Positions 1,718 through 11,874 of a stretch of DNA of 11,874 nucleotides are shown here, piece by piece. The stretch is taken from assembly GCA_043803685.1 (NCBI GenBank), contig JAZDJU010000082.1, positions 1 to 11,874 of the forward strand, read 5' to 3'. The position numbers were made by a program, and so were the translations under genes. The DNA comes from Candidatus Omnitrophota bacterium. Lineage in GTDB: Bacteria > Omnitrophota > Omnitrophia > Omnitrophales > Aquincolibacteriaceae. The notes beneath the pieces are model-generated. The model was given only the letters and a program-made list of their open reading frames with translations, was not told the DNA's origin and made no database searches. Positions within the stretch are counted from its first letter, which is position 1. The number at the start of each line of letters is the position of its first letter.

Positions 1718-2487
1718 GTCTCAAGGTCCTCGAACTTAAAAACAGGACCGTCGGCACAGGCCCGTTTAAGGCCCGTTCTCGTCTTCACCATGCATCCGAG
1801 GCAGGCACCAACCCCGCAGGCCATACTTTCATCCCAAGACGCCTCACCTTCGACACCGTATTTGGCCGCAATCGCGATCACTGCCTCCATCATCCTCTTC
1901 GGCCCGCAGGTCTGGATGTAGAATTCCTCGGGATGTTGGTCTTTCAAGATCTCTTCGAGAAGTAGCGTCACCCGGCCTTTCGTGCCATACGAGCCATCCT
2001 CTGTGGTGAAAAGAAGTTGGGCCCGGACTTTTTTGAGTTCGGACTTCGACATGAGCTCGGCTTTGGATTTTGTGCCGACAAGAAGATAAGCCGTGGGATA
2101 TTTTTCAGCGAGAAAAACAAGCGGCGGAACGCCCACCCCGCCCGCGACCAGAATGCGCTTTTTCTTACCAAGGTCTTTGGTGAATGCGTTCCCAAGAGGC
2201 CCCATGACCCTGAGAAAGTCTCCCTTCTTCTTCCCGGAAAGAATAGAAGTACCGCGGCCCAGAACCTCGTAAAGAACCTCGACCCTTCCGGGAGAAACCC
2301 TAAAATAGCTAAAGGGACGCCTTAAAAATGGATCCTGCCCCTGGTTGACACGCACGTGAAGAAACTGCCCTGGCTTGATATCTTTTGAAAGAGCCTTGGA
2401 ACGAAAAACCAGCTTAAAATATTTTTCGTTCACCTTCTTGTTTTCAAGAAGAAGGACATCTTCGTCGTATTTTTTCGCCTTCATCAC
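1714..2487 (-). CDS. pyrK: Dihydroorotate dehydrogenase electron transfer subunit
   Basis: PGQF, LRRPFS (FAD), GPLGN, AGGVG, CGP and MACGVGACLGC...C ([2Fe-2S]). Start is GTG 2487 or ATG 2484. Confidence 0.95.
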   Translation of the reverse strand: MMKAKKYDEDVLLLENKKVNEKYFKLVFRSKALSKDIKPGQFLHVRVNQGQDPFLRRPFSYFRVSPGRVEVLYEVLGRGTSILSGKKKGDFLRVMGPLGNAFTKDLGKKKRILVAGGVGVPPLVFLAEKYPTAYLLVGTKSKAELMSKSELKKVRAQLLFTTEDGSYGTKGRVTLLLEEILKDQHPEEFYIQTCGPKRMMEAVIAIAAKYGVEGEASWDESMACGVGACLGCMVKTRTGLKRACADGPVFKFEDLET

Positions 2488-2597
2488 AGGATCCTGTTTC
2501 TCTCAATCGTTCCGCACATTCAAATCTTTTAGAATGTTATCAGATTGTCCATTTGATTCATATCTAGAATATCGTCTCGAGATCAAAAATCGAACGC

Positions 2598-4013
2598 TCA
2601 AACCAGATATCCTAACGATCTCAATTGATCCGAAAGCTCCCCATCCTCTTCGACCTTAATCAGAGCCTGAGAACCTATCTTTTCACGAACAGCCTCGTTG
2701 GAAACTCGGATATCATCAACCCTAGACCGCATTCGACGGGTAACATCTTTAAGACTCAAAGCTAGATTGTGCTGCTCGTGTGGATCTTTTGTCGCGTCAA
2801 AGAGACACTCGGTAATACCACCATTATGTTCATTCGAATAGACAAAATCGTTCTCAATGAATCGAATTCTGCCGCCTTCCCCATAACTGACGACAAGCGG
2901 CTGATACGTCCCTTGGTCCGTGATCAGAGGAGCAAAAGAGCCCCCTTGCATGGGGCCAAAATTTTTATATTTAATTTTCAAGAAATCAAGAATCGTCGGC
3001 AACAAATCCATGGTCCGCGCCCGGTCACGCACTTTTTTTCCGGAATAGCGCTTCCCCGGGAACTTAATGATCAGCGGCACATTCATAGTTTCAACGAACA
3101 TTCTCGTATGCTCCCGACCGCCATGCTCAAAGAATTCTTCCCCATGGTCAGAAATGAAAATAATAAGCGACTGATCATAAAGGCCTTCTTTTTTAAGGAT
3201 CTCGATCATTTCCCCAAACAGATGATCCTCGTAATAGATCGCGCCATCATAGAGCGATACCAGATGGGCCCGATGCCGTGGATTGCTCAGATCCACTTTC
3301 TTCCAAAAATCATCGTAAAAATCACCGCACTTCCCGTCGGCCGGAAGATCATAACGAGACACGGGAAAGTCCTGAACACTATCCGTTAAATATTTCATAC
3401 TATATTCAGGAGGCGCTTGGAGATAAGGGAAGTGACAAATATAATTATGCAGAAAAAGAAAAAAAGGCTTGCGCATCTGTTTGCTGTTCATAATGGCATG
3501 GCGAACATCTTCAATTCCCGTGTTAAAGCTGTCCCAGAAACAATAAAAATCAAACCCCTTATCAAAACCCAATCTGCCGACAACGCTCCCCCCCCCATGT
3601 AACCCTATGGTTTGATAACCATGCCTGCGCAGAATTTGCGGCAAAGTCTGGATCTTTTCATCCAAGCGCATATTCGTGACTTTCCGGCCATCCCCCGAAG
3701 GGTTGGATGTCAAGAGATGGACCCAAGGCGTCAGGCCCGTGAATATGGACATAAAAGCAGGGGTGGTCAGGTTCGCCTGACTAATAGCCTTTTCAAACAA
3801 AACCGAGTCCTTTGCGAAAGCATCCACATGGGGAGAGGTTTTTCGAGGATAACCGTAACAACTCAGATGGTCGGCACGCAGCGTATCGACCGCGAAAATA
3901 ATGATATTGGGAGGGATCGGACGACGGAGATGCAAAAAAAGAACAACCACTAAAAAAATACCCGAGACCGCCACTATCCCGGCTGCAAATACTCTGACTT
4001 TGGATAATGGCAA
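2598..4013 (-). CDS. Membrane-anchored sulfatase-like hydrolase/transferase (alkaline phosphatase superfamily)
   Basis: N-terminal hydrophobic helix, PNIIIFAVDTLRADHL, LTTPAFMSIFTG, YDGAI, SDHGEEF, DPHEQHNL and C-terminal LRSLGY. GGAGGT lies 8 nt before a TTG start. Confidence 0.88.
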   Translation of the reverse strand: MPLSKVRVFAAGIVAVSGIFLVVVLFLHLRRPIPPNIIIFAVDTLRADHLSCYGYPRKTSPHVDAFAKDSVLFEKAISQANLTTPAFMSIFTGLTPWVHLLTSNPSGDGRKVTNMRLDEKIQTLPQILRRHGYQTIGLHGGGSVVGRLGFDKGFDFYCFWDSFNTGIEDVRHAIMNSKQMRKPFFLFLHNYICHFPYLQAPPEYSMKYLTDSVQDFPVSRYDLPADGKCGDFYDDFWKKVDLSNPRHRAHLVSLYDGAIYYEDHLFGEMIEILKKEGLYDQSLIIFISDHGEEFFEHGGREHTRMFVETMNVPLIIKFPGKRYSGKKVRDRARTMDLLPTILDFLKIKYKNFGPMQGGSFAPLITDQGTYQPLVVSYGEGGRIRFIENDFVYSNEHNGGITECLFDATKDPHEQHNLALSLKDVTRRMRSRVDDIRVSNEAVREKIGSQALIKVEEDGELSDQLRSLGYLV

Positions 4014-4086
4014 ATGGCGTTACCTCCGATTCATCGCGTGCTTTTTCATTTGACTCCCGCTTTCCGTTCTATCCATGCTACAGACA

Positions 4087-5388
4087 TCACAGAACGTACT
4101 GATATCCCTTCACGAACGTATGGAGGACCTTCCCCTTGAGTTTTTTTCCATAAAAACATGAATTCCTGGATTTTGACTGAACGTCGTCCTCACCAAAAAC
4201 CCAGTCCTTGTCGATATCCACCAGAATAAAATTAGCCTGTTCGCCGATCTTAAGTCTTCCAAAATTCGCCTTCTTCAGGATCTCCGACGGTGTAAGGCTC
4301 ATTTTTTTCACAATGTCTTCCAACTTCCATTTCCGGCCATGAAAAAGTTCCGTCATGATGACCCCGAAAGCTGATTCCAATCCGATCGCCCCAAAGGGGG
4401 CCGTTTCGATATCGCGATCCTTTTCCTCAAGCGCGTGAGGCGCATGGTCCGTTGCAATTGCGTCGATCGTACCGTCCTCCAACCCCGCCATGATGGCTTG
4501 ACGATCTCTTTCAGTTCGAAGTGGCGGATTCATTTTGTAAAAGGTGTCGTAATTAACGAACTCCTCATCCGTCAGCGCAATATGGTGCGGCGTCGCCTCG
4601 GCGGTGATCGGCAAACCCTCCGCTTTCGCACGCCGTATCATGTCGACAGCCCCGCGCGTCGAAACATGCTGAAAGTGAAGCTGACATTTGATGAGCCGGA
4701 CTAGTTCAATATCCCTGGCCGTAGCAATATCTTCGGCGGCGTTGGGAGAACCTCGCAGACCCAGCTTCGAAGAAACGATCCCTTCGTTCATCACGCCATT
4801 CACGCTGATCGAATGATCTTCGGCGTGCGACATGATCGGCAATCCGTAGGTCGCGGCATACTCGTAAACACGGCGCGCTACACCAGAATCCACGACCCAA
4901 CCCCCGTCATCGGTGACAGCCACAGCCCCGGCCGCCTTCATTTCTGCCATTTCCGAGATCTTCTTGCCTTCCCTTCCTTGCGTCAGCGTCCCGGCCGGAA
5001 AGATATTAAAGTTCAGTACGTTCGCGCGCTCCATTTGGTATTTCACGACCTGGGCATTATCGCAGGCCGGCTTCGTGTTCGGCATGGTCACGCAAGCCAC
5101 AAAACCGCCCGCGATCGCGGCCTGAGCCCCAGTCTCGATCGTTTCTTTATGCTCGTAACCAGGTTCGCGAAAATGGACATGAAGATCCACCAGTCCCGGA
5201 AGAAGATGGCGCTTCTTAGCATCCAGGATCTCCGCTTCCTCCGCCGCAAGATCTTTACCCCATTTTACGATCCGGTGGCTTTTGACATGAAGGTCCATCA
5301 CTTCATCGATCTTGTTCGCAGGGTCCACGATATGGGCATTCCGGATGATCAGGTTCTTGACGGATTGCCCGTTCAGTTTATTTTTCAT
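4087..5388 (-). CDS. pyrC: Dihydroorotase (multifunctional-complex type)
   Basis: PGLVDLHVHFREPG, MPNT, SHAED, HVST, KMNPPLR, ATDHAPH; metal ligands appear intact. Overlaps the end of pyrB by 11 nt. Confidence 0.96.
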   Translation of the reverse strand: MKNKLNGQSVKNLIIRNAHIVDPANKIDEVMDLHVKSHRIVKWGKDLAAEEAEILDAKKRHLLPGLVDLHVHFREPGYEHKETIETGAQAAIAGGFVACVTMPNTKPACDNAQVVKYQMERANVLNFNIFPAGTLTQGREGKKISEMAEMKAAGAVAVTDDGGWVVDSGVARRVYEYAATYGLPIMSHAEDHSISVNGVMNEGIVSSKLGLRGSPNAAEDIATARDIELVRLIKCQLHFQHVSTRGAVDMIRRAKAEGLPITAEATPHHIALTDEEFVNYDTFYKMNPPLRTERDRQAIMAGLEDGTIDAIATDHAPHALEEKDRDIETAPFGAIGLESAFGVIMTELFHGRKWKLEDIVKKMSLTPSEILKKANFGRLKIGEQANFILVDIDKDWVFGEDDVQSKSRNSCFYGKKLKGKVLHTFVKGYQYVL

Positions 5389-7080: not shown

Positions 7081-7572
7081 GAGAAGGCCTTCTCTATAAG
7101 CCGAGTTCTGTCCCCACTCTTGCGAGCGGAGGATGACCATCTATCTTGGACCGCCATTACTGGCAGCCTCGGTCGGCTTACCCGACGAGGTTCCCGCCTT
7201 GCGACGGAATAGGAACGGGCCGTTCCCGCTTTCGCTCCTCATCATGTTTAGCCTTTCTTCACGTAGAGATTGCCGCGTTTCACCTCTACTCCGCGTCGTC
7301 CTTATCGGCGACGCTCTGCAGGAGCTAGCCCCTCTATCGCTAGAAGGATTCATTCCTGCGTAGCCCTGCCCTTACGGACAGGGCGAAGCAGAACTCGTCT
7401 CTGTGGCTCTGATCCGTTCCACGATCGACCCTCTTTAAGAAGGATCGATCCCGGAAGGTGGGCGTTACCCACTACGATGCCCTATGAAGCTCGGACTTTC
7501 CTCCCACAGCGGTTGGACAGGTCGTTTCCCGTCTCTCATCATCTGTGCGCGGTCATCCGAGAAGGCCTTCTC
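7081..7572 (-). ncRNA. rnpB: RNase P RNA
   Basis: Universal motifs GAGGAAAGUCCGAGC and ACAGAACUCGGCUUAUA (P4, with matching CCGAG/CUCGG), P2 GAUGACC/GGUCAUC, AGAGCCACAGAGA, GGUGAAAC, P6 GGGC/GCCC, P18 with GUAA loop, P19 with GCAA loop, 14-15 bp P1. Confidence 0.96.
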
Positions 7573-7614: not shown

Positions 7615-7968
7615 CTAAATCCGTGCGTCCCCTCGTAACATCTCGAGTTGCTCTTTGGAAAATTCTGCCCAGCTAGTTCCCGGGAACTTCTTTATAACCA
7701 GCTCAAAGCTCTCGCGAGCGTTGTCTCGATTTCCGGAGAGCGCATAACTTTTCGCCACATAATATTCCGCGATCGCGGACAGGGTCCCTTGAGGATGGGA
7801 TGTCAGATATTCCTGATACTTCTCGATCGCCTTGGGATAATTCCCCTTTTTATAGAAAGTCTCAGCCTCGGAGTAAGGCCCAAAGGAATACTTCGGAGAA
7901 CTTGACGCACACGAGGCGAACATCACACCCAAAAGCGCCACCACCGCAAAAAGCCGCATCTTCTCCAT
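7615..7968 (-). CDS. Small TPR-like lipoprotein (BamD/CpoB-like repeat)
   Basis: Signal peptide with lipobox FAS-C, then YSEAETFYKKGNYPKAIEKYQEYL..HPQG..AEYYVAKSY...FELVIKKFPGTSWA. Start placed at ATG 7968 behind GAGGGGG rather than at 7986. Confidence 0.8.
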   Translation of the reverse strand: MEKMRLFAVVALLGVMFASCASSSPKYSFGPYSEAETFYKKGNYPKAIEKYQEYLTSHPQGTLSAIAEYYVAKSYALSGNRDNARESFELVIKKFPGTSWAEFSKEQLEMLRGDARI

Positions 7969-8015
7969 ACAAAACCCCCTCAGCATTTGAGATGCAAAAA
8001 AGAACTGACGTTGAA

Positions 8016-8045
8016 AGTCTACTTTTCATCCCCGAAAAGTGTCAA
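8016..8045 (-). promoter_or_regulatory. Candidate sigma70 promoter for the lipoprotein gene (and possibly rnpB)
   Basis: TTGACA (8045-8040), 18-nt spacer, TAGACT (8021-8016). Confidence 0.55.
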
Positions 8046-8091
8046 GAAGGAAAAGTTCATCCACCACACATCCTACCCCATGTAAAACGTG

Positions 8092-8165
8092 TGGGCCCAC
8101 CTGGACTCGAACCAGGAACCAAAGGATTATGAGTCCTCTGCTCTAACCGATTGAGCTATAGGCCC
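8092..8165 (-). tRNA. tRNA-Ile2 (anticodon CAU, lysidine type); CCA not encoded
   Basis: GGGCCUA UA GCUC AAUCGGUUA GAGC A GAGGA CUCAUAA UCCUU UGGUU CCUGG UUCGAGU CCAGG UGGGCCC A forms a full cloverleaf. C4:G69 and C5:G68 match TilS determinants. It has neither the C1 mismatch nor the GGG/CCC anticodon stem of fMet. Confidence 0.92.
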
Positions 8166-9312
8166 GAAAGCTACAACTTCTTCTAGATGAATAGGTTACA
8201 ATAAATCTATCCATTACTTTTCCGTCAGGATTTTCGCCTTGTGCCCATTTTGTGTCTATTTTATAGCTTTTAAGCCCAAAAACCCTATCCAGAACGCCTA
8301 TGGCTTTCGCCTGATGTTCGGGGCTCAGATGACTGTAGCGCATGGTCATTTGAATGGAAGCATGGCCCAGAAGTTTCGAAACGGTCACCAAGTCTACACC
8401 ACTCATTACGAGGTGTGAAGCGAAAGTGTGACGAAGATCGTGAAATATAAAGTCATCAAGCTCGGCTTTCGCCACGGCAGCATCAAACTCCTTCCTGAAG
8501 TAAGAAGAGAAGATCAGTTCTGAATCGGGTTGTTTCCTAAGCGACAGAAGAAGGCTTCTCACAGTCTCGTTCATCTGAAGAATTCGGCCCTTCCCTGATT
8601 TTGAATCCCGGATATGGATCTGCCCGCGATGGATATCGATATCCCGCCAAGTGAGCGCTACGATTTCTCCCCTTCTCATGCCCGTATTAAGACCAAACTT
8701 CACAAAAGCTAAAAGCTCACCTTCACAGGCCGCGACAAGCTTCTCTATTTCATCCTTGGAAAGGAATCTAAGCCGCTCGTTATTCTCCCGAAGCTTCCGC
8801 ATGCCATCACAAGGATTGGCGCGATGCAATCTTCCCCACTCCTTAGCGCGGTTAAACATAGAACGCAATAAAGCCATGCTCCGATTGATGGTAGCGGGTT
8901 TAATCTCATCAGCCAAACGCAGGGCCTTGAAACTTTCAATATCCTTCGAAGTGATCTCAAAAAGATACTTCTTTCCTAAGATCTTATTGAGGGTCGTTAA
9001 TCGCTGTTCATCGGTTCGGGATGATTTGAGATATATTTTTGTATGTCGCTCCAGATATTCCTTGCCGAAGTTCTCAAAGGTAATCTTTTCATCCTTCTGA
9101 ACATCGAAGAGCTTGCCCTCTCGCGCCTCAGCCCGCTTCTTCCCCAGAAAGTCTTCAGCTTCCTTCTTATTCGGGCCTATAGCCTTGCGGAAACGCCGCC
9201 GGACGCCTGTCTGATCGTAATAGTAAAAAGAGACGTAATAAACTTCTTCACGCACATAAATCCCTTTTGTCTTACGCTCTCGTTTATTTGGCTTGTCGGT
9301 GGTCTCTTCCAT
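8143..9312 (-). CDS. Tyrosine recombinase / phage-type integrase
   Basis: N-terminal arm-binding-like region, SAM-like core (KPATINR), catalytic set TGMRRGE, SKSG, FHDLRHTFAS, LLGH, TMRY. Confidence 0.95.
   Translation of the reverse strand: MEETTDKPNKRERKTKGIYVREEVYYVSFYYYDQTGVRRRFRKAIGPNKKEAEDFLGKKRAEAREGKLFDVQKDEKITFENFGKEYLERHTKIYLKSSRTDEQRLTTLNKILGKKYLFEITSKDIESFKALRLADEIKPATINRSMALLRSMFNRAKEWGRLHRANPCDGMRKLRENNERLRFLSKDEIEKLVAACEGELLAFVKFGLNTGMRRGEIVALTWRDIDIHRGQIHIRDSKSGKGRILQMNETVRSLLLSLRKQPDSELIFSSYFRKEFDAAVAKAELDDFIFHDLRHTFASHLVMSGVDLVTVSKLLGHASIQMTMRYSHLSPEHQAKAIGVLDRVFGLKSYKIDTKWAQGENPDGKVMDRFIVTYSSRRSCSFRAYSSIG
8240..8261. repeat. Tandem 11-bp direct repeat, candidate integrase arm-type sites
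   Basis: TGTGCCCATTT followed by TGTGTCTATTT (9/11 identical), 75 nt from the tRNA 5' end. Confidence 0.55.
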
Positions 9313-9313
9313 A

Positions 9314-9493
9314 TTATGGCTCCCCTTGCCTCACTACCCGCTGTACTTCCTTTTTGGGTATCGCATATATCTTCTCTCCAAACCTGACGGCTTTAAGAGT
9401 GCCTCTCTTGATACGTCCAATAATCGCTTGGCGAGAAACGCCTAACAGCTTTGCTAATTCCGGGACCGAGTAGAAGTCTTTCGCCTTAAGCAT
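9314..9493 (-). CDS. Excisionase-like / HTH_17 DNA-binding protein, 59 aa
   Basis: Not in the ORF track. Manual translation: MLKAKDFYSVPELAKLLGVSRQAIIGRIKRGTLKAVRFGEKIYAIPKKEVQRVVRQGEP. Its stop is 1 nt before the integrase ATG (TAA-T-ATG). Confidence 0.88.
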   Translation of the reverse strand: MLKAKDFYSVPELAKLLGVSRQAIIGRIKRGTLKAVRFGEKIYAIPKKEVQRVVRQGEP

Positions 9494-9499
9494 GCGCTA

Positions 9500-9528
9500 A
9501 TTGTACGCCAAGCATTGTCATAAGTAAA
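9500..9528 (-). promoter_or_regulatory. Candidate promoter for a leaderless HTH-integrase transcript
   Basis: TTTACT (9528-9523), 17-nt spacer, TACAAT (9505-9500); ATG follows 6 nt later with no Shine-Dalgarno. Confidence 0.55.
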
Positions 9529-9530
9529 TG

Positions 9531-9746
9531 TCAAATTTCCTTAGCAATTACCCGTTTAGCCTGAAGCCAAGCTTCAATCTCTGCCGCACTAAAACGAAGG
9601 AACTTGCCCAGCTTGATGTGCGGAATCTTTTTAACGGCGCACCAGTCGTAGAGGGTATTCTTCGACACGCCTAACATTGACGACAGCTCATCGATTTCTA
9701 TTAGCCGCTGATTGCGCCCAAACTTTCCTGCTGCCATTTCACTCAT
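9531..9746 (-). CDS. Excisionase-family HTH_17 protein, about 71 aa
   Basis: RLIEIDELSSMLGVSKNTLYDWCAVKKIPHIKLGKFLRFSAAEIEAWL. Start placed at ATG 9746 behind GGAGGT (the track start is 9797). Confidence 0.9.
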   Translation of the reverse strand: MSEMAAGKFGRNQRLIEIDELSSMLGVSKNTLYDWCAVKKIPHIKLGKFLRFSAAEIEAWLQAKRVIAKEI

Positions 9747-9950
9747 ACACTCAGCACCTCCCCTCATGGGAGGGCCAGTTACGACATGGGCGTTCATGGT
9801 TTGGGAAGGTTTTTATACTTGAAATAATCTTTGCCGGAAGGCAGCTGCCAGACGGGGTCTGGCGGGATCAAGAACCCGAGATAATGGGAGCCAGAGAAGA
9901 ATTCTTAAAATCCGCCCATTACTACGAACGGAAAATAAACATAAGACGTG

Positions 9951-10373
9951 TTACATATCTCTCAGTTTGCCGTTCCAATACTCAATATAAGTCTCATAGG
10001 CTTTTCTTTCCGTCAGGAATCTCACGTGATGATCGACGGTCAGCCGATAAGCCAAGATGCTTTTAATGCCCAATCTGCGAGCTTTTTCCATTCTGTGATT
10101 ACCGTCGATCAGATTGTATTTCCCGGGCGCGATCTCGGCTATTATCACGGGATCACCGATCCTGATCGATTCCAGCTTCGAATCGGCAAACGGCTCAAAG
10201 CGATTAAAATCATCGACGGCAATTTCCTCCGGAACGAACTCTCCGGGACGCTCACGGATATGTTCGATCATCTTCGTGATATTGAACTCAAAGATGCCGT
10301 TCGCGAACAACTCATCCCCTTCAGATTCCGGGCAAGGAACAAAATCGCGATCAAGCTTCAGTTTCTTTGCCAA
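9951..10373 (-). CDS. Small stand-alone ParB/Srx N-terminal-domain protein
   Basis: PVIIAEIAPGKYNLIDGNHRMEKARRLG is a ParB/Srx-type motif. No HTH follows. GAGGAG lies before a TTG start. Confidence 0.75.
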   Translation of the reverse strand: MAKKLKLDRDFVPCPESEGDELFANGIFEFNITKMIEHIRERPGEFVPEEIAVDDFNRFEPFADSKLESIRIGDPVIIAEIAPGKYNLIDGNHRMEKARRLGIKSILAYRLTVDHHVRFLTERKAYETYIEYWNGKLRDM

Positions 10374-10446: not shown

Positions 10447-10962
10447 TCATCGGGACCAACTGGCAGGAAGGGTCTTATTGATCGCCTGGCGGGCCCCTTG
10501 TGAGAGCTGTGGCTCTTCGCTCTCTTTCGCTGTTGCCTTCGCCCGTGATGAAGAGCGCCCTGGGTCGAGGCGCCGCATGAGCTCCGGAACCGTAAGAATC
10601 TTGCCCACAAGAGAGCGAATGTGAAATGCCAGAGTGCCCCAATCTTCCGTAGCAACCTCGATATCCCTGGGCTTTGGGAAAGCCCTGCAAAATTTGATAA
10701 TGGCGTTATCAGCACCCTGATCCCCCGCCGTAAAGAGAACCTTGACCTGCCGGTCCGAAAGCTCTGGAGCGGACCGGGCCACGGTTCCGTCAAAATAGAT
10801 ACGGACCTCAAGTCCCTTCCTGCCGACGCAGTGTCTTTTTGCGAGCCGGATCAGTTCTTCCCGGTATCCGCGCCGCACTTCGTCAGATCCCAGATCGTGC
10901 TTGGGATTTGCCGCAAGCCCTCGGGCGATCACATTGTACCCGTCGATCACAAGGACGTTCAT
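10447..10962 (-). CDS. NYN-domain (YacP/Rae1-like, PIN fold) ribonuclease
   Basis: LVIDGYNVI, IYFDG, VLFT..GADNAI and VATED supply four acidic residues in YacP-like spacing; AGGAGA ribosome-binding site. Confidence 0.82.
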   Translation of the reverse strand: MNVLVIDGYNVIARGLAANPKHDLGSDEVRRGYREELIRLAKRHCVGRKGLEVRIYFDGTVARSAPELSDRQVKVLFTAGDQGADNAIIKFCRAFPKPRDIEVATEDWGTLAFHIRSLVGKILTVPELMRRLDPGRSSSRAKATAKESEEPQLSQGARQAINKTLPASWSR

Positions 10963-11016: not shown

Positions 11017-11733
11017 TCAAACCTGAACGCGCCAGATAGGAATCCCTAGATGCTGACGAAAGGTCTCACCCGTCAAGAGCCGGGTTTTGCGTTCAGGAAG
11101 ATCACCTCGCCCCGCCACATGCTGCCGGTGCTTCCCGAGCCAGAGCGATGTCCCTAAGTGGAGGGCATGCTTGCCGTAGAGCGCATTGACCCCGTCAAGC
11201 ACCTGGTCGATCCTTTTAAAGGATTCGATCTTCGGGACATCATCAAAGAGGTCGTATTGAACCGTCCGGTCCGCTTCCATCTTGGAAAGAACGATCCCGG
11301 TCAACCGATACGCAGTCCCAGGAGAGAATATCCGTTCAAACAAATCCCCCACGAGATTAACTGCATCAAGCGTCGATGACGTGCTCCTGTCAAACGCCCC
11401 TTCGATCCCCGAAGAATGGAACTCCTGATCCCGAAGAAATATACAGACCTTTTTCGCCCGCAACTTGTAACGCCGCATTTTGATGAATGCCGATTCCAGG
11501 TTTCTTACAAGTTGCGCCTTCACAAAATCCTTCTCGGAAGAAGGCGGCGTGAAGGTCTTCGTTTTGCTGATCGATGCATAATCTTCCTTTTCTTGCGTTA
11601 CGACTGGATAGACCGCCTCACCGCGAAGTTCATGCCAAAGCTCAACCCCGATCTTCCCAAGCAGTCCCTTCGCCCACACTTCCGACCGGCTCACATAGTT
11701 CCAGACATTTCGTATCCCCTGCTTTTCAAGAAG
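11017..11733 (-). pseudogene. C-terminal part of a Y-family DNA polymerase (DinB/UmuC-like), interrupted by an IS
   Basis: LLEKQGI...LGKIGVELWHELRGE, SISKTKTF, little-finger YRLTGIVL, clamp-like QYDLF, D.VNALYGK. The catalytic N-terminal motifs are absent and similarity stops at the IS end. Confidence 0.85.
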
Positions 11734-11874
11734 TGACCTAGCCCCCGAAAACTGAGCCAGTTGTTGTGATAGACTTCTGGCAACAGAAAGGGGCAAAAAG
11801 ATGGCGAGAAAAAGGCTTCAACCCGAGGAGATCATTCTTAAATTACGAGAGGTCGAGATCCAGCAAGGGAAAGG
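11734..11874 (+). mobile_element. Left end of an IS3-family insertion sequence (IS407-like)
   Basis: Begins 5'-TGACCTAGCCCCCGAAAA, a TG-terminated IS3-type end, followed by a ribosome-binding site and orfA. Confidence 0.82.
11801..11874 (+). CDS. IS3-family transposase OrfA, N-terminus (partial)
   Basis: MARKRLQPEEIILKLREVEIQQGK after GAAAGGGG resembles IS407-group OrfA starts. Confidence 0.8.
   Translation, partial: MARKRLQPEEIILKLREVEIQQGK

Follow-up and report, generated by a model that had tools for sequence, protein, structure and literature searches.

The window described here is the complete contig C82 (11,874 bases; JAZDJU010000082.1) of the metagenome-assembled genome of a Candidatus Omnitrophota bacterium, a genome of 2.89 Mb in 133 contigs whose completeness is estimated at 91% and contamination at 6.6%. 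On its minus strand the window carries int, a tyrosine integrase gene of a mobile element, followed on the same strand by a tRNA-Ile2 gene, and the int open reading frame (ORF) ends inside this tRNA gene. A sequence-only reading of this DNA had noted the overlap and had proposed that removal of the int stop codon by host tRNA processing acts as a switch that senses whether the element is integrated. The features that bear on the overlap are as follows, in nucleotides (nt) of the window and amino acids (aa) of the integrase.

8143..9312, minus strand: tyrosine integrase ORF, 389 aa, with Pfam Phage_integrase and Int_N domains; the coordinates include the TAG stop
8317..8766, minus strand: catalytic domain, aa 183-332, covering positions 2-171 of the 172 of the PF00589 profile
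8146..8280, minus strand: C-terminal tail, aa 345-389 (last 45 codons), unconserved and predicted to be disordered, overlapping the P arm
8238..8263, minus strand: tandem arm-type repeat in the int tail, 26 nt, a pair of similar units with a spacing of about 11 bp, candidate Int arm-binding sites
8195..8199, minus strand: GTAAC motif, about 34 nt upstream of tRNA +1
8091..8165, minus strand: tRNA-Ile2, anticodon CAT, reconstituted and intact (ARAGORN; Rfam tRNA match 8092..8165, 72.6 bits)
8127..8165, minus strand: element-supplied tRNA 5' half, 39 nt from +1 to the end of the anticodon loop, 100% identical to G000:C98:83906-83944
8143..8145, minus strand: int stop codon TAG, in the D arm of the tRNA (nt 21-23), inside the shared block and so in both the excised and the integrated form
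8127..8133, minus strand: anticodon loop, presumed strand-exchange (overlap) region, where the identity block ends

When the coordinates were examined it was found that the geometry given in the sequence-only reading is exact in all its parts. The int ORF with its stop takes up exactly 23 nt of the tRNA (8165-8143), the TAG falls in the D arm, the CGG codon at 8166-8164 straddles tRNA +1, and the translation ends ...SCSFRAYSSIG*. Each of the three frames meets a stop in the tRNA (nt 8-10, 21-23 and 37-39), and at the sequence level a cut at +1 would leave an int message with no in-frame stop after codon 381. The assignment of the tRNA as tRNA-Ile2 was also upheld, being backed by 82.7% identity along its full 75 nt to E. 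coli genes with the annotation tRNA-Ile (present at a median of two places per genome), by TilS, which is encoded in the genome, and by its being one of the three CAT tRNAs found there. It is 100% identical at nt 1-75 to the tRNA of a relative (G010). The CAT tRNA on contig C31 has a 1:72 mismatch and a GGG/CCC anticodon stem, and from these features we take it to be the probable initiator; the one on C37 (6335-6410) may, by elimination, be the elongator tRNA-Met, and tilS lies directly downstream of it (G000:C37:5653-6410 region). The window gene is apparently the only tRNA-Ile2 gene in this incomplete genome. The tRNA-Ile2, taken here to decode AUA, is expected to be essential.

The integrase matches Phage_integrase (PF00589) with E=7.4e-34 at aa 183-332 and Int_N with E=2.5e-13 at aa 94-175. 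In an alignment of the integrase with 13 homologues (14 sequences) R213, K238, H291, R294 and Y326 are invariant and H317 is nearly so, and the protein thus has the R...K...H-x-x-R...H/W...Y residues of a PF00589 tyrosine recombinase. The final invariant column of the alignment is L341 and there is no conservation beyond it. An AlphaFold2 model built on the same alignment has a mean predicted local distance difference test score (pLDDT) of 79, with a confident catalytic body and a confident N-terminal sheet-plus-helix domain (a three-strand sheet and a helix at aa 18-65), whereas residues 344-389 have a pLDDT below 50 and no secondary structure. Because conservation ends with L341 and the pLDDT is below 50 at 344-389, the last 45 codons are regarded as a non-conserved tail. 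In one homologue (L016, G039:C43) an in-frame TAA stands in the conserved H-L-S-P-S-H stretch shortly past the catalytic Tyr and this integrase is probably a pseudogene; its tail frame is nonetheless open until 7 nt ahead of a tRNA-Ser(gct).

The tRNA's 5' half was found a second time on contig C98. The identity between the two contigs begins at tRNA +1 and ends after CTCATAA, the last base of which is the last base of the anticodon loop. The copy on C98 has rpoD and a response-regulator (RR) gene upstream and non-tRNA DNA downstream. In seven same-genus relatives (L039, L040, L043, L045, L047, L048 and L049) the order rpoD, RR gene, tRNA(CAT), tetratricopeptide repeat (TPR) lipoprotein gene is uninterrupted, and a DNA search placed rnpB next in this order in many relatives. 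In the present genome the locus is split, with rpoD, the RR gene, a promoter-like word and the tRNA 5' half on C98, and int, the complete tRNA, the TPR gene and rnpB on C82. The promoter-like word, TTGCAA-17-TATCCT past the RR gene, which we read as conserved among the relatives, stays on the C98 fragment. In the signature used by Islander a full tRNA gene and a co-oriented 5' fragment upstream stand on one replicon with int between them; here the full gene is on C82 and the fragment on C98. The crossover is presumed to lie in the anticodon loop because an anticodon-loop class of tRNA attachment sites (the class of Williams 2002) is described in section 18 of PMC8371274; in this class the block common to both sites ends at that loop, with the symmetric anticodon stem on either side. 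It is probable that an element with its own tRNA 5' half directly after int inserted here at the anticodon loop.

Past the C98 junction there are about 290 nt of P' arm, followed by a glucoamylase-like gene, NAD synthase, fabF-like and signalling genes, and a TcdB/SpvB/RHS-like ORF. The glucoamylase-like gene was found in two of 20 relatives and looks accessory, and the region upstream of it in the relative G003 showed no attachment-site features. The last-named ORF (C98:100126-103846; L068:16227-19946) lies about 16 kb from the displaced half, runs off the contig end and has SpvB, TcdB-middle, FG-GAP and RHS-repeat domains (Tc/Rhs-type). A terminator made of the displaced half and a T-run of the element on C98 was considered and rejected, as the scan gave no terminator-like site there and the fold (-10.4 kcal/mol) had no canonical hairpin.

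The two junctions share more than the tRNA half. The 26-nt tandem repeat in the int tail recurs at 96% identity at C98:84072-84097, about 130 nt past the displaced half, and on C63. Each related element has its own version of the tandem pair in the int tail and the same version past the cognate half (C5/C90, C7/C1, and C103 with both arms), the repeats standing 70-94 nt ahead of +1 in several loci and the other copy about 125-170 nt past the half. In the viral locus L073 the whole arrangement is present on one molecule: a tandem pair at -94/-83, a tRNA-Ile2-like 5' half, non-tRNA DNA, and an identical pair at +157/+168. Two other viral loci, L094 and L096, have the same layout of the element's attachment site (attP) with a tRNA-Cys-like half. 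The earlier suggestion that an excised circle would lack a complete tRNA is borne out by these data, in that the shared block comprises nt 1-39 only and these three loci show int, a half and then non-tRNA DNA. The tandem repeats are most simply taken as arm-type Int-binding sites, and a weak peptide motif shared by the tails is a feature of the DNA, because its 11-bp period is out of step with codons and it recurs in non-coding DNA. With an N-terminal domain predicted and arm repeats on both sides, the integrase has the marks of a heterobivalent (lambda-type) recombinase at the level of sequence and model. A GTAAC-like word was seen by eye 27-31 nt from +1 in most of 18 loci, and a similar word is present past the displaced halves on C90 and C1 and past the half of L073. 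Two further stretches, C63:9705-9955 and C7:8816-8886, are 77-80% identical to the P' arm at the C98 displaced half; no tRNA half was detectable beside either of them, and they may be termini of additional related elements or of decayed ones. C63 and C98 share another stretch deeper in, of about 1.5 kb and 71% identity.

Other tRNA genes of the same genome have displaced 5' halves as well. Nt 1-38 of tRNA-Thr(cgt) on C5 are repeated on C90, nt 1-39 of tRNA-Pro(tgg) on C7 are repeated on C1, and nt 1-38 of tRNA-Thr(tgt) on C103 are repeated about 9 kb upstream on the same contig. The C103 island (L155; 57834-66938, 9.1 kb) shows the Islander 5'-fragment signature on one contig, with the fragment at 57834-57871, int at 58019-59098 and the tRNA at 66866-66938. 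Its int is on the opposite strand and adjoins the fragment, i.e., it is at the far end from the full tRNA, and its cargo consists of the integrase, a replication-protein-O-like gene, a ThsB-TIR (Thoeris-type) gene and an Mrr/ResIII helicase gene. About 130 nt upstream of the reconstituted tRNA of this island there is a promoter-like site that matches the consensus at 11 of 12 positions and points at the tRNA. Two observations on other tRNA genes are added here: on C40 a fragment of tRNA-Gln(ttg), nt 1-34, lies just 330 nt upstream of the full gene, and tRNA-Pro(tgg) has an additional 3' fragment (nt 29-73) on C45.

The positions of the int stop were compared in three sets of loci. Among the relatives and in the genome itself there were 36 distinct loci with the C-terminal part of a homologue, 17 of them with a same-strand tRNA directly after int, plus a remnant without int (L044). 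The metagenome contigs gave 80 loci, of which 76 had a measurable stop and 13 of these a same-strand tRNA after int, and the viral contigs gave 80 loci, of which 79 had a measurable stop and two a full same-strand tRNA; tRNA 5' halves after viral integrases were looked for by eye in 17 long-tail loci of these 79. The 32 loci with int and then a tRNA represent about 17 tRNA genes by anticodon and, being related, are not independent samples. Since a same-strand tRNA directly follows int in 17 of the 36 homologous and 13 of the 76 metagenome loci, the overlap of int with the tRNA is not a chance juxtaposition.

In the pooled 32 loci the frame stops inside or beyond the tRNA in 10, 1-16 nt ahead of it in 15 and 30-80 nt ahead of it in seven. 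The 17 relative and own loci comprise six with the stop inside or beyond, nine with gaps of 5-16 nt and two with gaps of 56 and 64 nt. The six are the window (nt 23), L020 and L034 (nt 21 of tRNA-Cys), C7 (nt 10 of tRNA-Pro), and L017 and L033, in which the frame passes through tRNA-Leu(taa). Four of the 13 metagenome loci stop inside or beyond (nt 38, 39, 44 and 87) and nine ahead, with gaps of 1, 3, 8, 11, 30, 45, 48, 57 and 80 nt; in the two viral loci the gaps are 10 and 13 nt. A stop inside the tRNA occurs across at least eight tRNA identities, and in L094 and L096 it lies inside the half even in the attP state. The closest integrase, however, that of L009, which has tRNA-Leu(caa) as its target and shows 74% identity in the aligned part, leaves a gap of 15 nt to the tRNA. 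The remnant L044, a P arm without int before the same tRNA-Ile2 in the relative G003, carries TAA in frame, 7 nt ahead of +1, at a place where the window reads TGT, and the Ile2-type attP L073 also has an in-frame stop 7 nt before +1. Because these three stop before +1, the reading of int into the tRNA in the window appears from the comparison to be a lineage-specific state, and a stop inside the tRNA is not the conserved condition of the family, being found in only 10 of the 32 loci. The sequence-only reading had itself held that homologues stopping well before the tRNA would speak against its proposal; most do stop before the tRNA, but mostly just before it, so that this describes the family only in spirit.

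Two further results concern the frame itself. Over the 63-149 nt from 13 codons past the catalytic Tyr to +1, the int frame is open for at least 85% in 14 of the 17 loci, compared to two and one of the 17 for the other two frames. When metagenome loci with a converging tRNA were examined, the int ORF was found to run into the tRNA in antisense in five of 20, and because of such read-ins the overlap of the int 3' end with the core of the attachment site is regarded as general and independent of tRNA processing. In L017 (G003:C7) and L033 (G011:C33) the frame crosses the whole tRNA-Leu(taa) and continues for about 150-200 nt; two copies of the tRNA-derived peptide are present in the tail, suggesting that a copy or fragment of the tRNA stands in tandem (tandem attachment sites).

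How the rebuilt tRNA might be transcribed was approached through promoter-like and terminator-like sites, for which the features upstream of int are needed.

9314..9493, minus strand: 59-aa HTH_17 protein (PF12728, E=1.3e-9), candidate excisionase
9500..9528, minus strand: promoter-like site ahead of the 59-aa HTH_17 gene and int, TTTACT and TACAAT spaced by 17 nt; it agrees with the consensus at 9 of 12 positions and is a consensus match only
9531..9797, minus strand: 88-aa HTH_17 protein (PF12728, E=5.6e-14)
9951..10373, minus strand: 140-aa ORF with matches to no Pfam family, in the low-G+C stretch beside the integration module; its membership of the element is uncertain

The 59-aa HTH_17 gene stops 1 nt ahead of the int start codon. 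The promoter-like site at 9528..9500 is a candidate source of int-tRNA transcripts, and a scan of 7950-9600 gave no terminator-like site between it and the tRNA. Its TACAAT ends 7 nt ahead of the ATG of the 59-aa HTH_17 gene, whose message may be leaderless, and a TTGACA is present 23 nt upstream of TACAAT (window 9485-9540, minus strand). Inside int there are two more promoter-like matches, 8419..8391 and 8258..8230, with 9 of 12 positions each, and both are unconserved in the relatives. Five relatives have a promoter-like site of 10-11 of 12 about 345 nt upstream of the tRNA, inside int; it overlaps the codons for F-C...P-Y-N-F, a conserved stretch, and the window lacks it. A conserved sigma-70 promoter in the tail just upstream of the tRNA was considered because GTAAC stands at a fixed distance, and was rejected because no conserved -10 follows it.

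A probable explanation for all this is that the overlap is a consequence of an attP laid out with a tRNA 5' half, and that the reading of int into the tRNA is a side effect and not a switch. The elements would form a family with heterobivalent tyrosine integrases that recombine at the tRNA anticodon loop and, unlike most elements, would carry in attP the tRNA 5' half (nt 1-39) immediately after int and on the same strand. On integration the host 5' half and the native promoter would stay behind at the far junction, here on C98, and the element 5' half would be fused to the host 3' half to give an intact tRNA-Ile2. The last 45 int codons would then be the P arm of attP, with its tandem repeats and GTAAC word, read in an open frame and not a conserved protein segment. 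In the relatives the frame would mostly be closed 1-16 nt before +1, and the window gene, which does not have that stop, would run on to the TAG in the D arm. Since the tRNA holds stops in all three frames, a frame whose own stop is lost ends very soon afterwards, and since all three of these backstops lie in the 39-nt shared block, the C-terminus of Int does not differ between the excised and integrated forms. Because integration parts the rebuilt tRNA from its native promoter, the element would have to supply the transcription of the tRNA, and most simply this would happen at the 3' end of an HTH_17-int transcript. The promoter-like site on C103, where int is placed at the opposite end, fits the idea of an element-supplied promoter. 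Co-transcription of int with the tRNA would deprive some int messages of their stop, and this effect of RNase P cleavage would be a tolerated one. Our preferred inference is that the open tail frame serves tRNA expression. The pattern of stops reads as near-neutral drift across the tRNA border, because loci with the stop inside are in the minority, the closest relatives differ and the backstops are free. The sequence-only reading had named incidental read-through as its fallback and this fits the data best, with the caveat that throughout the family the frame stays open as far as the tRNA.

Several observations weigh against this explanation. The two junctions are on different contigs of an assembly that is incomplete and partly contaminated, and some of the genes past the C98 junction resemble housekeeping genes. 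The promoter-like matches at 8419..8391 and 8258..8230 within int could alone drive the tRNA. The open frame in 14 of 17 loci suggests that the tail is under some selection for translation and is not simply junk, and 10 loci of 32 with the stop inside or beyond are not rare, so that it may have a function in those lineages. Finally, co-transcription of int and the tRNA, the tRNA promoter and RNase P processing are all presumed.

The switch proposed in the sequence-only reading was that in the integrated state RNase P removes the int stop, so that Int is SsrA-tagged and degraded, whereas an excised circle with half a tRNA is not cut and gives stable Int, the whole being selected as a sensor of the integration state. 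Its geometry stands, since the stop is downstream of the RNase P site and a cut at +1 would drop it, and since attP holds nt 1-39 only the acceptor stem cannot form in the circle, as the attP-state loci L073 and L094/L096 exemplify. The genome encodes both rnpB and ssrA, there is no terminator-like site between int and the tRNA, the displaced native promoter makes transcription from the element side likely, and the stop lies inside tRNAs of many identities. If the switch were true, host tRNA processing would sense the integration state in a manner that mirrors lambda sib retroregulation, a family in which int frames stay open as far as the tRNA would have evolved the switch repeatedly, and a non-stop switch would be a novel sort of integration-state control; in the open-access literature that was searched no paper was found that links integrases with non-stop messages made by RNase P. 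Nevertheless, the loci do not support a designed switch, as the position of the stop inside the tRNA is not conserved: in 22 of the 32 it lies before +1, including the closest integrase with its gap of 15 nt, and in L044 and L073 it lies 7 nt before. Moreover, the logic of RNase P does not apply to the antisense read-ins at converging tRNAs, and selection is not needed for a read-in when the tRNA itself gives stops in all three frames. The comparative data therefore make the switch unlikely as a selected function.

An alternative that keeps a role for the open frame is that ribosomes cover the transcript up to the tRNA, deny Rho a place to load and so secure read-through from the int promoter into the tRNA, with the exact place of the stop being nearly neutral. 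This possibility we hold only tentatively. It would account for the bias towards the int frame in 14 of the 17 loci and for stops at most 16 nt from +1 or inside the tRNA in 25 of the 32; selection on the tail peptide itself is made improbable by its lack of conservation and predicted disorder, the native promoter is displaced, and PMC8371274 states that in pTN3-like elements the tRNA is expressed from the integrase promoter. The argument is, however, purely inferential, seven of the 32 loci have gaps of 30-80 nt, and the dedicated promoter-like site on C103 indicates that members of the family can do without read-through from int. The site about 345 nt upstream in five relatives points the same way, although it overlaps conserved codons and is absent from the window. 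It is improbable, to about the same degree as the switch, that the tail has a function within Int, for instance as an extension that regulates it or contacts a protomer, and that the tRNA overlap is a matter of gene compaction. The frame is kept open, and the more distant viral homologues often end 0-7 codons past aa ~340 (many of the 79 measured), which makes the long tail group-specific; but no residue is conserved after L341, the pLDDT is below 50, and the sole recurrent motif of the peptide is the tandem DNA repeat, which has an 11-bp period and is also present in non-coding DNA on the other arm. That the adjacency is an artefact of assembly or chance, with an integrase unrelated to the tRNA, is very improbable indeed. 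The genome is fragmented, its contamination is 6.6% and the window is a whole contig of 11.9 kb whose right end branches to two contigs. Against this stand the int-then-tRNA layout in 17 of 36 relative loci and 13 metagenome loci, the exact 39-nt displaced half in the expected host context, and the arm repeats that match on both sides. Public contigs of four lake-water DNA runs also argue against an artefact; these contigs were all short and carried tRNA pieces of many organisms, and int pieces were found in them with 0 differences at a depth of 2-4, though they yielded nothing on junctions or ends.

The explanation favoured here, an attP built on a tRNA 5' half, can be set beside several known systems. 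The integrase of lambda is heterobivalent, with each of the two arms bearing tandem arm sites, and lambda sib is an RNA element across attP that is cut by RNase III and makes int expression dependent on the integration state. The window element is like lambda in having arm sites on both arms, and sib is the nearest precedent for the switch idea. However, in lambda the RNase site is joined to int when the phage is not integrated and acts through mRNA decay, whereas the RNase P substrate proposed for the window would be complete only upon integration and would act through loss of the stop. In the Myxococcus phage Mx8, integration at the 3' end of tRNA-Asp alters the C-terminus of Int. Here, in contrast, integration leaves Int unchanged and its C-terminal coding is not replaced, the stops of all frames being in the 39-nt block, and the tRNA part is a 5' half in sense orientation. 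In E. coli the stop of secG is upstream of leuU, so a non-stop message does not arise there. The secG-leuU pair is otherwise similar, a coding message with a 3' tRNA that is co-transcribed and separated by RNase P (PMC2241853), but it is a host operon and not a mobile element.

A close likeness is to the pTN3/TKV4-type elements of Thermococcales, whose chromosomal attachment site (attB) is a tRNA 5' half, the minimal site being nt 2-44 of tRNA-Leu (PMC8371274, PMC5495485). The legend to S2 Fig of PMC5495485 gives a shared block of 41 bp for pTN3 and a tRNA parted from its promoter, and PMC8371274 describes the use of the 5' half by pTN3-like archaeal integrases together with tRNA expression from the integrase promoter. 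These elements are of the SSV type, with attP inside the gene so that integration splits int, whereas the window int stays whole because its stop lies inside the shared block; the integrated ORF is complete, with 389 aa and all catalytic residues, and the integrase is not of the suicidal kind. They are also archaeal, whereas the window host is bacterial and the attachment site has lambda-like arm repeats. As in the islands with a 5' tDNA fragment catalogued by Islander, which number 159 of 3919 in Table 1 of PMC4383910, a full tRNA gene and a displaced 5' fragment would mark the ends, with the anticodon loop as sublocation. In the same article Mx8 and SSV are given as examples of integrases that "extend across attP", and the Mx8 integrase ORF, like that of the window, crosses the attachment site (PMC4383910). 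In bacteria, according to PMC8371274, a rebuilt tRNA gene retains its own promoter "with very few exceptions". The window element is a bacterial member of the rare 5'-half class, with neither a split integrase nor a tail swap of the Mx8 type.

The remainder of the window gives the setting of the element. The G+C content is about 46-48% across 8000-10250 and 52-55% in the flanks; another low-G+C zone at 2250-4250 (43-49% compared to about 54%) spans the ORF 2598..4013 (471 aa) and part of 4087..5388 (433 aa). A 259-aa ORF at 11017-11796 (minus strand) matches only the C-terminal IMS_C domain of Y-family polymerases and is possibly truncated, and a YacP-like NYN-domain gene at 10447-10962 (minus strand) adjoins it; because the G+C content there climbs to host level, both may be outside the integration module. 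A direct repeat, D3 (8151-8172 and 10742-10763, 77%), has its second copy inside the YacP-like gene and was judged to be due to chance. When contig ends were compared, C82 overlapped only C33 and C113, and C98 overlapped none. The right end of the window (11734-11874) is identical over 140-141 nt (100%) to ends of C33 and C113; this is an assembly branch, probably due to strain variation. The gene for RNase P RNA, rnpB (Rfam RF00010, 174.7 bits), is at 7081-7568 (minus strand), about 520 nt downstream of tRNA-Ile2, and since the order tRNA, TPR gene, rnpB is kept in many relatives this proximity is host synteny and a coincidence.

Almost all elements that target tRNA genes replace the 3' part of the tRNA and spare its promoter, whereas the family described here replaces the 5' half. 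An apparently single-copy tRNA-Ile2 would thereby depend on transcription from a mobile element, and the element and its host would share an interest in a transcribed int region. The compact attP, with arm repeats in the coding tail, a tRNA half as core and a second arm, together with the targets of the family, at least 12 different tRNA genes, would be useful for learning how integrases change their targets. The overlap is also a natural test bed for the meeting of the ribosome and RNase P over the same few nucleotides.

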